Notes: generated by a model from the letters alone, not told the origin. A stretch of DNA of 64,000 nt from Candidatus Nomurabacteria bacterium (GCA_021413905.1 JAIOPO010000001.1:9159-73158), one strand, 5' to 3'; shown: positions 5,932-10,351, numbered from the stretch's first letter. A program made the numbers and translations.

Positions 5932-7512
5932 TTTTAGTTAGAGTTTGATCCTAGCTCAGGATGAACGCTGGCGGCGTGGATAAGGCATGCAAGTCGAACG
6001 GACTAGTCCCATGAATGTATGAGAAACTGAAAGTAGCAATACGATTGGAATCAAGTATTGGATTGGGTTCACTAGTTAGTGGCGAACGAGGTAGTAATAC
6101 GCAGGAACTTCCCCCAAAGTCACGAATAATTCGGAGAAATCCGGACTAATACGTGATGGTCTCGCAAGAGTAAAGAATTTCGCTTTGGGAAAGGCCTGTG
6201 CGGTATCAGCTAGTTGGCAGTGTAATAGACTACCAAGGCTATGACGCCTAGGGGAGCTGAGAGGCTGACCCCCACCGATGGGACTGAGACACGGCCCATA
6301 CACCTACGGGTGGCTGCAGTCGAGAATCTTCCACAATGGACGAAAGTCTGATGGAGCGACGCCGCGTGATTGATGAAGTCCCTTTGGGACGTAAAGATCT
6401 TTTATGAGGGAAGAAGTTTATTGACTGTACCTCATGAATAAGAGGCTCCTAATCTCGTGCCAGCAGGAGCGGTAATACGAGAGCCTCAAGCGTTATCCGG
6501 AATTATTGGGCGTAAAGGGTGCGTAGGTTGTTTTGTTAGTCTTTTGTCAAATCCCGGAGCTTAACTTCGGATATGCAAAAGAAACGGCAAAACTTGAAAG
6601 TGTGAGAGGCGTACGGAACTCATGGTGTAGGGGTGAAATCCGTTGATATCATGGGGAACACCAAAAGCGAAAGCAGTACGCTAGCGCATATTTGACACTG
6701 AAGCACGAAAGCGTGGGTAGCGAATGGGATTAGATACCCCAGTAGTCCACGCCCTAAACGATGATTTCTCGCTATTCGGAGTATCGACCCTCTGAGTGGC
6801 TTAGCTAACGCGTTAAGAAATCCGCCTGGGAAGTACGGCCGCAAGGCTAAAACTCAAAGGAATAGACGGGGACTTGCACAAGCAGTGGATTATGTGGTTT
6901 AATTCGACGGTAAACGAAGAACCTTACCAGGGTTAGAAATCAACATGAAAGCTCCGAGAAACCGGAGCCCTCGCAAGACTAGTTGACAGGTGTTGCATGG
7001 CCGTCGTCAGTTCGTGGTTTGAATTGTACCCTTAAGTGGGCTAACGAACGCAACCCTCGTTGTGTGTTACAAGTGTCACACGAGACCGCCCCCGCCTAAG
7101 TTTTTGAATTCTTCATAAATGAAGAATCGAGATTTTAGGCGGGGGAGGAAGGAGAGGATGACGCCAGGTCAGCATGACCCTTGATACCCTGGGCTACACA
7201 CATAATACAATGGCCGTTACAACGCGCAGCGACGAGGCGACTCTGAGCTAATCGTCTAAAAGCGGCCTCAGTTCGGATTGTAGTCTGCAACTCGACTACA
7301 TGAAGCTGGAATTGCTAGTAATCGCGGGTCAGCTAAACCGCGGTGAATACGTTCTCAAGTCTTGTACTCACCGCCCGTCAAGTCAAGGGAGCCGGGAGTA
7401 CCCGAAATCTCTGCATAAGCAGGGCCTAAGGTAAGCTCGGTGACAGGGACTAAGTCGTAACAAGGCACGGCTAGCGGAAGCTGGTCGTGGAATAATTCAA
7501 TTTGAAAAATGT
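5932..7512 (+). rRNA. rrs: 16S ribosomal RNA
   Basis: AGAGTTTGATCCTAGCTCAG 5' end, the GTGCCAGCAGGAGCGGTAATAC region, GCCCGTCA and AAGTCGTAACAAGG near the 3' end, and helix 45 with a GGAA loop. Confidence 0.9.
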
Positions 7513-7710
7513 CCCAACATTAATTTATTAATTGTTGATGATCTCGCCATAAGCGATTTCTAAATCTCGGATGAGATTGGATTAATTGAGTCGGTATTGT
7601 GTAGCTCAATTGACTACACAATGGACAATGATTCTACGTCCTAAAAAGAATATGACAACAAGGGAAAGACCCGAGTTAATAGAACGAAACAAAACAAAGC
7701 ACAGCAAAAA

Positions 7711-7736
7711 CAAAATCGCCCAAAAGGCGATTTTGT
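7711..7736 (+). terminator. rho-independent terminator after the 16S rRNA
   Basis: aaaatcgcc-caaaa-ggcgatttt followed by gtg. Confidence 0.6.
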
Positions 7737-7759
7737 GCTATAAATAAGAAATATAATTT

Positions 7760-10351
7760 ATGCAAAAAAACAAAGCAACAACTGAAGGTAGCATTATCGT
7801 CAAAGGCGCACGAACGCACAATTTGAAAAATGTGACGGTGGAAATGCCTCGCGGGAAAATGATAGTTTTTACCGGTCTTTCAGGTTCCGGAAAAAGTTCA
7901 TTGGCTTTTGATACTATTTTTGCCGAGGGACAAAGACGATATGTGGAATCTCTTTCTTCTTATGCGCGACAATTTTTAAAACAAATGGCAAAGCCGGACG
8001 TGGATGAGATAGAAGGATTAAGTCCTGCGATTTCAATTGATCAAAAATCTAGATCAAACAATCCGCGTTCGACAGTGGCGACTATCACAGAGATTTATGA
8101 TTATCTTCGTGTTCTTTATGCGCGCGTGGGGCGTCCGCATTGTTTGACGTGCGGAGATGAAATAAAAAAACTTTCAAATGAAGAAATTATAAAATTCGTG
8201 ATGGAGAAAATTTCTAAACTTTCCGGTGGAAAAAAGAAAGTGATGGGCGTGGAATTCGACGATACTCCGATACAAATATTTGCTCCAATGGTGCGAGGCA
8301 GAAAAGGCGAATACTATCAATTGCTTTATGATTTGCTTGGCAAAGGATATACCAAGGTCCGCGTGGATGGCACGATGAAGATTTTACGTGAACGTATTGA
8401 TTTATCAAAAACAAAAAAACATGATATTGATGTCTTGGTTGATGAATTTTCTGCGCATGAATTTGCGGTGAAAGATATGAAAGATGTCGAACTGCGTTTA
8501 TCTGAATCAGTCGAGCGAGCATTGTTGGAATCAGACGGATTGATAAAAGTTTTAATAAATAAAGAAGAAACTTTATTATCTGCAAAATTTTCTTGCCCGA
8601 AAGACGGCTTTTCTTTTCCAGAAATAGAACCACGTCTTTTCTCTTTCAATTCTCCACACGGAGCTTGCCCTGAATGTCATGGACTTGGCACAAAACATAT
8701 GTTTGGCGAAGATACTTGTGATGAGTGTAAGGGTGCGAGACTTCGCCCAGAAGCGTTGAAAGTATTTTTATCTGACAAAGAAATCAGTATCGTGGATTTT
8801 ACCGCAATGTCTATCGAAGATGCAGTATTATTTTTTAATAAATTAAAATTAACAGCGCAAGAGCGTGAAATATCTGCAGTATTATTGAGGGAGATTTCTT
8901 CGCGTTTGGAATTTCTTTTAAATGTAGGTTTGGAATATTTATCGCTCGATAGACGAGCAAATACTTTATCCGGCGGAGAAGCTCAGAGAATTCGCTTGGC
9001 TTCACAACTCGGTTCACGCCTTGTCGGAGCATTGTATGTTTTAGATGAGCCAACAATTGGTTTACATCAGAGAGACAATGAAAGACTTATTAAAACGCTT
9101 ACGGATTTGCGTGATTTAGGTAATACTATAATAGTCGTGGAGCATGATGAGGATACCATTTACTCTTCGGATTTTATTGTAGACATTGGTCCAAAAGCCG
9201 GAGTGCACGGCGGGGAAATAATCGTTGCGGATTATTTGGATAAACTTTTAACCGCACCGAAAAATACTTCAAAGTCTAGAACACTCGCATATTTGAGAGA
9301 AGAAGCAAGAATAGAAATTCCGGAAAAAAGACGTGAAGCAGAAAAAGGTAGTATTAAAATAGTCGGTGGTAAAATTTTCAGTATTAAAAATTTAAATGCG
9401 GAAATACCGCTCGGCAGGTTGGTTTCTATCACCGGTGTTTCCGGCTCAGGTAAAAGTTCTTTTATGTATGAGATTTTACATAAGAATTTGCAAGCCAGAT
9501 TTGAAAGAAAATATCGTAGTGCACAGACTTTTAATTGCGCATCTTTTTCTGGAAGCGAATATTTACAACGTGCAGTATTAATAGACCAAAGTCCTATAGG
9601 CAGAACACCGAGATCAAATATTGCGACTTATACTGGAGCATTTACTTTCATTCGTGATTTATTCGCGGAGACAGAAGAAGCGCGTTTCAGAGGCTGGAAG
9701 TCAAATAGATTTTCTTTCAATGTAAAAGGTGGACGATGCGAAGCTTGCGAAGGTAATGGTGAAATAGCTGTGGAGATGCATTTTTTGCCGACAGTTTATG
9801 TGACTTGTGATGTCTGCAATGGAAAAAGATTCGATAAAGAAACTTTGAAAGTAAAATATAAAAAGAAAAATATTTATGAAGTTTTGCAAATGACCGTGGA
9901 GGAGGGCTTGAAATTCTTTGAAGATATTCCTGCTATTTCTGATAGATTGAATAGCTTGGCTGATGTTGGATTAACTTATGTAAAATTAGGACAAAGCGCA
10001 ACGACGCTTTCTGGCGGAGAAGCGCAACGCGTGAAAATCTCCAGCGAGCTTTTCCGTCCGTATTTGGAAAAGACGATTTATCTTTTAGACGAGCCGACTG
10101 TGGGCTTGCATTATGATGATGTTCAGAATTTGATAAATGTTTTGGAAAAATTGGTACACAAGGGGCATAGTGTGGTAGTCATTGAGCACAATATGGATTT
10201 AATAAAATCTTCTGATTATATTTTAGACTTTGGTCCTGAAGGGGGAGATAAAGGTGGTATGTTAATAGCCAAAGGTACACCGGAACAAGTGGCGAATAAT
10301 AATAAAAGTTTCACCGGACAGTATCTTAAAAAAGTTTTAAGGAAGAAATAA
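7760..10351 (+). CDS. uvrA: excinuclease ABC subunit A
   Basis: GLSGSGKSSLAFDTIFAEGQRRYVESLS, zinc-finger cysteines and two ABC modules. Confidence 0.95.
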   Translation: MQKNKATTEGSIIVKGARTHNLKNVTVEMPRGKMIVFTGLSGSGKSSLAFDTIFAEGQRRYVESLSSYARQFLKQMAKPDVDEIEGLSPAISIDQKSRSNNPRSTVATITEIYDYLRVLYARVGRPHCLTCGDEIKKLSNEEIIKFVMEKISKLSGGKKKVMGVEFDDTPIQIFAPMVRGRKGEYYQLLYDLLGKGYTKVRVDGTMKILRERIDLSKTKKHDIDVLVDEFSAHEFAVKDMKDVELRLSESVERALLESDGLIKVLINKEETLLSAKFSCPKDGFSFPEIEPRLFSFNSPHGACPECHGLGTKHMFGEDTCDECKGARLRPEALKVFLSDKEISIVDFTAMSIEDAVLFFNKLKLTAQEREISAVLLREISSRLEFLLNVGLEYLSLDRRANTLSGGEAQRIRLASQLGSRLVGALYVLDEPTIGLHQRDNERLIKTLTDLRDLGNTIIVVEHDEDTIYSSDFIVDIGPKAGVHGGEIIVADYLDKLLTAPKNTSKSRTLAYLREEARIEIPEKRREAEKGSIKIVGGKIFSIKNLNAEIPLGRLVSITGVSGSGKSSFMYEILHKNLQARFERKYRSAQTFNCASFSGSEYLQRAVLIDQSPIGRTPRSNIATYTGAFTFIRDLFAETEEARFRGWKSNRFSFNVKGGRCEACEGNGEIAVEMHFLPTVYVTCDVCNGKRFDKETLKVKYKKKNIYEVLQMTVEEGLKFFEDIPAISDRLNSLADVGLTYVKLGQSATTLSGGEAQRVKISSELFRPYLEKTIYLLDEPTVGLHYDDVQNLINVLEKLVHKGHSVVVIEHNMDLIKSSDYILDFGPEGGDKGGMLIAKGTPEQVANNNKSFTGQYLKKVLRKK

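Follow-up and report, generated by a model that had tools for sequence, protein, structure and literature searches.

We analyzed a 64,000-nt stretch of DNA (the window) from Candidatus Nomurabacteria bacterium (GCA_021413905.1, JAIOPO010000001.1:9159-73158), which has a G+C content of 32.7% and carries a 16S rRNA gene with an altered 3' tail. The gene (5933..7502, + strand) is a complete bacterial 16S rRNA gene, which matches Rfam RF00177 (SSU_rRNA_bacteria) over model positions 1-1533 with 1344.8 bits. Compared with the Rfam consensus, it holds a lineage-specific insertion of about 63 nt near its 5' end (about 6003-6070), and a second insertion at about 7086-7148 consists of an extended G+C-rich hairpin (inverted repeat 7086-7099/7135-7148). 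Downstream lies uvrA (7760..10351, +), and the other genes identified in the window include uvrC, secA, gyrA, clpB, dnaE, an ABC-F gene, hisS, murC, murE, def, fmt, lepB, and the genes for IF2 and for ribosomal protein S1, the only ribosomal-protein gene found in the 64 kb. A preliminary description of this DNA had named uvrA, secA, gyrA, clpB, ABC-F, S1, IF2, hisS, and def, all of which were correctly assigned.

The preliminary description had also reported a recognizable helix 45 followed by a tail that lacks the anti-Shine-Dalgarno (anti-SD) sequence CCUCC, and the alignment to the Rfam consensus bears out both points. Helix 45 (CACGGCUAGC-GGAA-GCUGGUCGUG; 7466..7489, +) is intact, and across 58 distinct relatives its pairing reaches 99.8%, with 6 covarying pairs. 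Just 3' of this helix, where the consensus tail is GAUCACCUCCUUU, the gene ends in GAAUAAUUCAAUU (7490..7502, +), aligned to the final 13 model positions GAUcACCUCCUUu. AUUCA (7495-7499) stands in the anti-SD slot, showing that CCUCC has been replaced. The altered tail is not random in sequence, and it still keeps G1530, A1531, U1537, and C1538 (E. coli numbering). It differs from the sequestered anti-SD of the Bacteroidota type, in which CCUCC is retained, since the tail here is GAAUAAUUCAAUU. A possible mini-hairpin, UUCA-AUU-UGAA (7496..7506, +; 3-4 bp), would span the predicted mature end. As a strongly supported structure it was rejected, and it is kept as a candidate that is only suggestive: a mini-hairpin of 3 to 6 bp occurs at the tail end in 51 of 58 distinct tails (swap test, p ~0.03), with an in-register pairing of 60.8%.

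A search of the + strand found no CCTCC between 1956 and 12645, so that the 258 nt ahead of uvrA, earlier described as free of this motif, can indeed supply no anti-SD. The same search rules out a hidden CCUCC or an intervening sequence in this region. The preliminary description had considered that the mature 3' end might extend into a missed CCUCC-containing segment, which is unlikely given that no CCUCC occurs past the tail and that dozens of relatives share a non-canonical tail.

These relatives were collected in a scan of one genome per species with a signature of the 16S 515 region (GTGCCAGCAGGAGCGGTAATAC), which is unrelated to the tail. At least 120 loci were listed, almost all of them labelled Paceibacterota/Parcubacteria (Nomura-, Kaiser-, Adler-, Zambryski-, and Wolfebacteria, Minisyncoccia), and the 16S 3' end lay inside the retrieved DNA for 73. 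Among the matches listed, the closest 16S genes are those of two Paceibacterota metagenome-assembled genomes (MAGs), L050 (94.4% identity) and L073 (94.3%), and of L054, a "Ca. Nomurabacteria" locus (93.2%). The identity of 92-94% to Paceibacterota and Nomurabacteria MAGs places the source, to judge from its 16S, as a Paceibacteria/Parcubacteria bacterium of the candidate phyla radiation (CPR) near "Candidatus Nomurabacteria". Among these matches, CCUCC is missing from about 68 of the 73 tails; the window tail GGAAUAAUUCAAUUUGAA is identical in at least 13 relatives, and other tails end in ...AUUCCAAUUGG, ...UAUCCAAUCGG, or ...ACUCAAAUUGAG. Only five of the listed loci retain (C/U)CUCC (L026 Kuenenbacteria, L044, L069, L095, and L114 Peribacteria), and they have the most distant 16S genes (76-87% identity).

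The statement in the preliminary description that loss of the anti-SD is uncommon therefore stands for bacteria generally and fails for this lineage. Indeed, anti-SD loss is already published for Parcubacteria, of which only 48% carry the CCTCCT motif, with an overlap with the group lacking uL1, and its significance was called unclear (Tsurumaki et al. 2022, RNA 28:1041, PMC9297842). Since the trait had been published by these authors, the window mainly adds one more anti-SD-less case, and shares with theirs the lineage, a complete 16S gene with helix 45, and a tail free of CCUCC(U). The sequence that replaces the anti-SD, the promoter architecture, and the structured trailer described below are not part of their report.

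Could a canonical anti-SD nevertheless exist in this organism, carried by a second rRNA operon or restored when an intervening sequence is cut out of the transcript of this gene? The window spans only 64 kb, CPR 16S genes are known to contain insertions, and the 16S gene of one relative (L052) holds a group I intron. However, the + strand is devoid of CCTCC from 1956 to 12645, the non-canonical tail abuts helix 45 and is conserved over about 19 nt in many relatives, and the large or complete contigs CP174360.1 and OZ244939.1 have one 16S match each among the matches listed. Moreover, the genes are SD-free, so such an anti-SD would have no pairing partner. We give this explanation hardly any credence.

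The upstream regions of the genes tell the same story. We considered 59 non-overlapping open reading frames (ORFs) of the window, taking the first in-frame start codon as the start. GGAG, GAGG, or AGGA occurs at -20 to -1 in 2 of the 59, compared with 8.3% of random 20-mers, and one of the two has a doubtful overlapping start at 17105. None of these tetramers was found in the last 20 nt upstream of the genes for which the preliminary description had reported a lack of SD motifs, and in the window as a whole such tetramers are rarer than in random sequence. The only perfect SD-like site of the window, AAGGAGG-5 nt-TTG (53399..53410, -), precedes an ORF without Pfam match located downstream of def-fmt (52898-53398, -); about 0.2 perfect sites are expected by chance in the window, and this one could be a chance occurrence or belong to a recently acquired gene. 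In the five canonical-tail loci, SD tetramers precede 25% of the 24 ORFs versus 14%, a comparison confounded by G+C content and start-codon calling. The lack of both anti-SD and SD is real and no chance effect. Together, the CCUCC-free tail and the near absence of SD tetramers support the SD-independent initiation suggested earlier.

A new tail (...AAUUCAAUU) might have co-evolved with a new SD-like upstream motif, and AATTAAATT-type sequences do stand between the promoter box and the ATG in several genes. However, judged by duplex energies, 98% of shuffled tails pair better with the -20 to -1 regions than the observed tail does, and the observed tail itself pairs better with random intergenic 20-mers, which leaves no alternative SD and speaks against a compensatory motif that matches the new tail. 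Furthermore, the tails of relatives vary (UUCA, UCCA, CUCA, AUCC) while the upstream architecture is constant, and A/U-only helices this short would be very weak. A co-evolved pair is thus highly improbable.

The regions upstream of the genes had been described as A/T runs. They are free of SD motifs, as stated, yet not featureless: 22 of the 59 ORFs carry a positioned -10 box, often with a TGn extension. We searched for TATAAT-like hexamers with at most one mismatch in which A2 and T6 are kept. In 14 of 59 ORFs, exactly 6 nt separate such a hexamer from the start codon, where any other position has about 1 (Poisson p = 6e-12), and in 22 of 59 the gap is 5-8 nt (p = 5e-10). Among these 22 box-bearing ORFs, 11 have the TGn extension, for which 4.9% would be expected (p = 1.5e-9), all begin with ATG, and none has an SD-like tetramer at -20 to -1. 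For the string TGnTAnnnT, 11 cases end at a distance of 6-8 nt from the start, versus 0.7 expected. A TTGACA-like box 16-18 nt upstream of the hexamer is modestly enriched (32% versus 15%, p = 0.03). Boxes are found in 1 of 14 genes packed at most 15 nt behind the previous gene and in 19 of 45 others (p = 0.02), and this rarity in tightly packed genes fits promoters, unlike ribosome-binding sites. ORFs without a box have A-rich upstream regions (47% A at -15 to -1, compared with 34% in intergenic DNA) or start 1-6 nt past the previous stop codon.

Several individual sites illustrate this arrangement. Clear cases are TTGACT-17-TATACT-6-ATG at 33748 (-) and TTGACT-16-TATAAT-8-ATG at clpB. The leaderless candidate secA (14686..14700, +) has the -10 box TATCAT (14686-14691) with TGg at 14683-14685 and a 6-nt spacer before its ATG, and dnaE (62219..62231, -) has TATTAT (62226-62231) 7 nt from its ATG, with TGc at 62232-62234. 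A spacer of only 24 nt (37453..37476) separates a DUF4446 gene (-) from a cysteine desulfurase gene (+) and contains the overlapping boxes TATACT (37465-37470, +) and TATATT (37461-37466, -), leaving no room for 5' untranslated regions (UTRs). At uvrA, whose upstream region is SD-free, TGcTATAAA (7736-7744) would imply a leader about 9 nt long. Profile alignments confirmed the starts of secA, dnaE, murC, the cysteine desulfurase gene, clpB, and pth.

The same architecture is conserved in relatives. In 320 ORFs from relatives with non-canonical tails, 20, 12, and 9 box hits lie at 6, 7, and 8 nt before the start, compared with about 2 elsewhere. TGnTAnnnT is present 6-8 nt before the ATG of secA orthologues in 46 of 49 distinct loci (metagenomes, 73-80% protein identity), often directly behind the terminator hairpin of the upstream gene and amid varying surrounding sequence. 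In a more distant secA group from marine metagenomes (L183-L201, 44-47% identity), the genes share an SD-free, A/T-rich upstream block, ...AAAATTATTATAAATAATAAC-ATGTTA. The 632-nt stretch upstream of secA in the window (14066-14697) contains neither an ORF of at least 80 aa nor an Rfam hit.

Since 6-8 nt is the usual distance from a -10 box to the transcription start, we infer that the mRNAs of these genes should have the A of the AUG, or a nucleotide adjacent to it, as their first base and be leaderless. We found no report of leaderless initiation in CPR, Patescibacteria, or Parcubacteria in the searchable literature, the coverage of which is incomplete.

An explanation that dispenses with leaderless mRNAs is that ribosomal protein S1 captures the A/U-rich 5' UTRs of all transcripts, with the TATAAT-like words as enhancers or chance occurrences. 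An S1 homologue is encoded in the window, as previously noted (22029..23129, -; 366 aa, below the equivalog cut-offs), the upstream regions are A/T rich, and some genes (e.g., those at 2307, 5176, and 43818) clearly depend on more distant promoters, and their SD-free leaders measure 30-35 nt. However, the hexamers stand at one fixed distance, which is the spacing of a sigma-70 -10 box to the transcription start; half of them carry TGn, a signal at the DNA level, and some have TTGACx 16-17 nt upstream. In addition, terminator hairpins directly precede the box in secA orthologues, two boxes share the 24-nt divergent spacer, and A/U-rich enhancers would have no reason to conserve TG-n-TA-nnn-T. 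Capture of leadered mRNAs by S1 as the general route thus seems unlikely to us. Leaderless initiation in E. coli needs no S1. The homologue covers most of a short, 391-position S1 model, and the four domains noted in the preliminary description fit the ordinary CPR form, as S1 of most CPR is built of 3-4 domains (Tsurumaki et al. 2022, PMC9297842). The protein may help on leadered genes, and the idea of a reliance on S1, raised in the preliminary description, is probably secondary.

We now turn to the region downstream of the tail and to the transcription unit that contains it. No large-subunit or 5S rRNA was found in the window (1-64000), and no 23S gene follows the 16S gene at the loci of 18 relatives, so the 16S gene is unlinked from 23S/5S and appears to form its own transcription unit. 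A candidate promoter, TTGACA-17-TATACT, matches the consensus at 11 of 12 positions (5613..5641, +; consensus match only). The 5' arm of a pre-16S processing stem (5899..5925, +) is a 27-nt inverted repeat, 93% complementary to the 3' arm (7680..7706, +), whose sequence is conserved in relatives. The energy of the leader/trailer duplex (-50.4 kcal/mol, compared with -37.7 +/- 4.4 for shuffles, one of which was lower) is uninformative, and the stem rests on the inverted repeat instead. A G+C-rich, terminator-like hairpin (7710..7736, reported on the - strand) lies between the 16S unit and uvrA, and relatives carry a variable hairpin and a T run at this place. In two relatives, an RNase P RNA gene is found within about 1 kb downstream of the 16S gene (1958-2303 in L055, 2255-2644 in L062), which is not so in the window, and in L046 it is farther away (5738-6044).

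About 180 nt separate the predicted mature 16S end from the processing stem. When 16 trailers are aligned, hairpins that vary between sequences give way to a block of strong conservation. The hairpins (7510..7580, +) are a predicted fold whose sequence is not conserved among relatives. The conserved element (7587..7677, +) comprises a first hairpin (7597-7604/7614-7621, +) with the conserved loop CUCAAUUGA, an H-type pseudoknot (S1 7623-7626/7638-7641, S2 7631-7635/7647-7651, +) with the loop UAAAA, and a second hairpin (about 7660-7674, +) with the loop GAAAGA. We aligned 24 distinct sequences, which are related to each other, with plain MAFFT. In this alignment, 86.5% of the cells are paired versus 61.9% in shuffles, both partners vary in 19 of 22 pairs, and the covariation score is 0.661 versus 0.205 (0 of 500 shuffles as high), with slid controls at 46% or below. 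A covariance model built on the nested part of the structure hit 37 loci with E < 0.01, each of them exactly once and immediately 3' of the 16S gene, plus six weaker matches of the Kaiserbacteria type. The five canonical-tail loci were without a hit, as was all other sequence in the 635 kb. In this sample, the element is therefore seen solely in anti-SD-less lineages. No family of Rfam 15 (5S, SRP, tRNA-like, and others) matches the trailer in a cmscan of 7150-7800 with E up to 10, which returned the 16S gene and two weak chance hits at 7706-7772. No description of such a structured trailer was found in the searchable literature, with the incomplete coverage stated above.

The 5' flank of the element, AAUUGAGU (7584..7591, +), is complementary to the tail (7495-7502) and overlaps the conserved GUCGGU (7590-7595) by 2 nt. 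Across 43 distinct relatives, the mean tail/flank helix is 5.2 bp for native combinations versus 4.6 +/- 0.15 for swapped ones (0 of 1000 swaps as high), and the two segments change together (AUUCAAU/AUUGAGU, CCAAUUGG/CUAAUUGG, AUCGGA/UCCGGU). The former anti-SD segment therefore appears to be engaged in a conserved 3' domain of the precursor. We infer that the most likely role of the trailer lies in the maturation of the 16S 3' end or in assembly.

The trailer could instead be retained as a 3' expansion of the mature 16S rRNA near the mRNA exit or platform, where it would sequester the tail and join in initiation, a scenario compatible with leaderless mRNAs. Its conserved loops and covarying pseudoknot could block 3' exonucleases, it is complementary to the tail, and it was found only in the anti-SD-less lineages of the sample. 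Its position inside the processing stem has also been counted in favor of retention. Nevertheless, 3' trailers with conserved processing signals are normal, the canonical-tail controls number only five, and we know of no precedent for a bacterial small-subunit 3' extension of this size. Retention is thus improbable in our view. Improbable as well is the broader conjecture that the trailer of anti-SD-less Paceibacteria (7584-7677) is either kept on the mature 16S rRNA or released as a stable RNA, with its 5' flank pairing to the former anti-SD.

Based on these results, we propose that a clade-wide loss of the anti-SD is accompanied in this bacterium by SD-free initiation, with leaderless mRNAs made from position-locked -10 boxes, and with a trailer devoted to 16S maturation or assembly, a combination that we regard as likely. 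The single, 23S-unlinked 16S gene has lost its anti-SD, a trait shared across the clade. In at least about a third of the genes, chiefly those not closely packed behind a neighbor, a sigma-70 -10 box, often extended by TGn, stands 6-8 nt before the ATG and should place the transcription start on or beside the A of the start codon. The resulting leaderless mRNAs would be loaded through recognition of the start codon and the initiator tRNA, and the remaining genes probably initiate on unstructured leaders or by termination-reinitiation. Era, an assembly GTPase that reads GAUCACCUCC on the tail, is lost from most CPR (PMC10582724), and bS21 is frequently lost in Parcubacteria (Tsurumaki et al. 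2022, PMC9297842). With these two constraints gone, along with SD use, which is absent here, the tail would have been free to change, and it is complementary to a segment of the structured trailer inside the long processing stem. Of these elements, the tail sequence, the missing SD motifs, the placement and conservation of the -10 boxes, and the structure of the trailer are direct observations, from which the transcription starts, the way ribosomes are loaded, and the role of the trailer are deduced.

Several points weigh against this proposal. The leaderless starts and the mature 3' end are predictions from sequence, and some ORF starts, taken as the first in-frame codon, may be wrong. TATAAT-like words are common in DNA of 33% G+C, yet by themselves they are not position-locked. 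The signature is present in only about 37% of the ORFs, and for most genes the route of initiation is read from base composition. The canonical-tail sample is too small to link the leaderless architecture with the loss of the anti-SD. Finally, the relatives share ancestry, so that fewer independent events underlie the counts than their size suggests.

The features of this lineage can be compared with those of better-known systems. Bacteria rich in leaderless mRNAs, such as Mycobacterium and Deinococcus, and the "group C" genomes of GeneMarkS-2 share with the window a -10 box 6-8 nt before the ATG and the lack of an SD over a large fraction of genes; they keep a canonical anti-SD and SD sequences on leadered genes, whereas here both are gone. 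In Bacteroidota, the context upstream of start codons is A rich and Kozak-like, and SD-free, A-rich upstream regions and a 3' tail unused for mRNA pairing are common to both groups. Their anti-SD is reported to be present but sequestered (Jha et al. 2021), with CCUCC kept there and replaced here.

The mammalian mitochondrial small subunit has no anti-SD. Like mitochondria and tiny-genome endosymbionts, this lineage combines an anti-SD-less ribosome with leaderless or SD-free mRNAs and a reduced set of ribosomal components and assembly factors; mitochondrial mRNAs are leaderless, and the ribosomes of such endosymbionts also lack an anti-SD. In contrast, we deal here with free-standing bacteria that have sigma-70-type promoters and a conserved 3' trailer not known in those systems. 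Ordinary rRNA operons with an RNase III stem likewise possess a long leader/trailer helix around the 16S rRNA and a tail that can pair with the trailer, the anti-SD being followed by AAGGAG in many Firmicutes and also in the canonical-tail relatives L026 and L069. Here, however, the 16S gene is unlinked from 23S, and the stem encloses a trailer of about 180 nt with a conserved pseudoknotted element, compared with 33 nt inside the stem in E. coli.

Other features of the window are listed for completeness. A LOOT RNA motif (Rfam RF03000; 47800-47922, +; 79 bits, above the gathering score) is intergenic, between the ORFs 46629-47675 (-) and 47976-48650 (+). A gene for a large serine recombinase (43818-45383, -) extends into the 3' end of a tRNA-Asn gene (43758-43830) and is followed by genes for an HTH_36 protein and a DUF5659 protein and by unannotated ORFs, so that the segment 43758-47675 looks like a mobile element integrated at a tRNA gene. 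Four paralogous T4SS-pilin (PF18895) genes (30315-31975) lie downstream of a gene for a 617-aa fibronectin-III protein (whole region, 28511-31975).

The leaderless architecture and the structured trailer are, as far as we could find, additions to the published loss of the anti-SD, within the incomplete coverage of the literature. The position-locked -10 boxes offer a testable answer to the question left open by Tsurumaki et al. of how translation starts in these bacteria, and the trailer element may bear on how the 16S 3' end matures without Era and without a canonical tail. There are also consequences for annotation, as SD-based start prediction will misplace gene starts in anti-SD-less genomes, and 16S 3' ends may be mis-trimmed. 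If the conjecture of a retained trailer were true and the trailer stayed attached, the small subunit would possess a novel 3' domain in place of the module formed by SD/anti-SD, Era, and bS21, and, combined with a genome-wide switch to leaderless mRNAs, this would mean that the initiation platform of a whole bacterial clade is fundamentally re-wired. More generally, the leaderless architecture and the trailer bear on the evolution of minimal bacterial translation systems.

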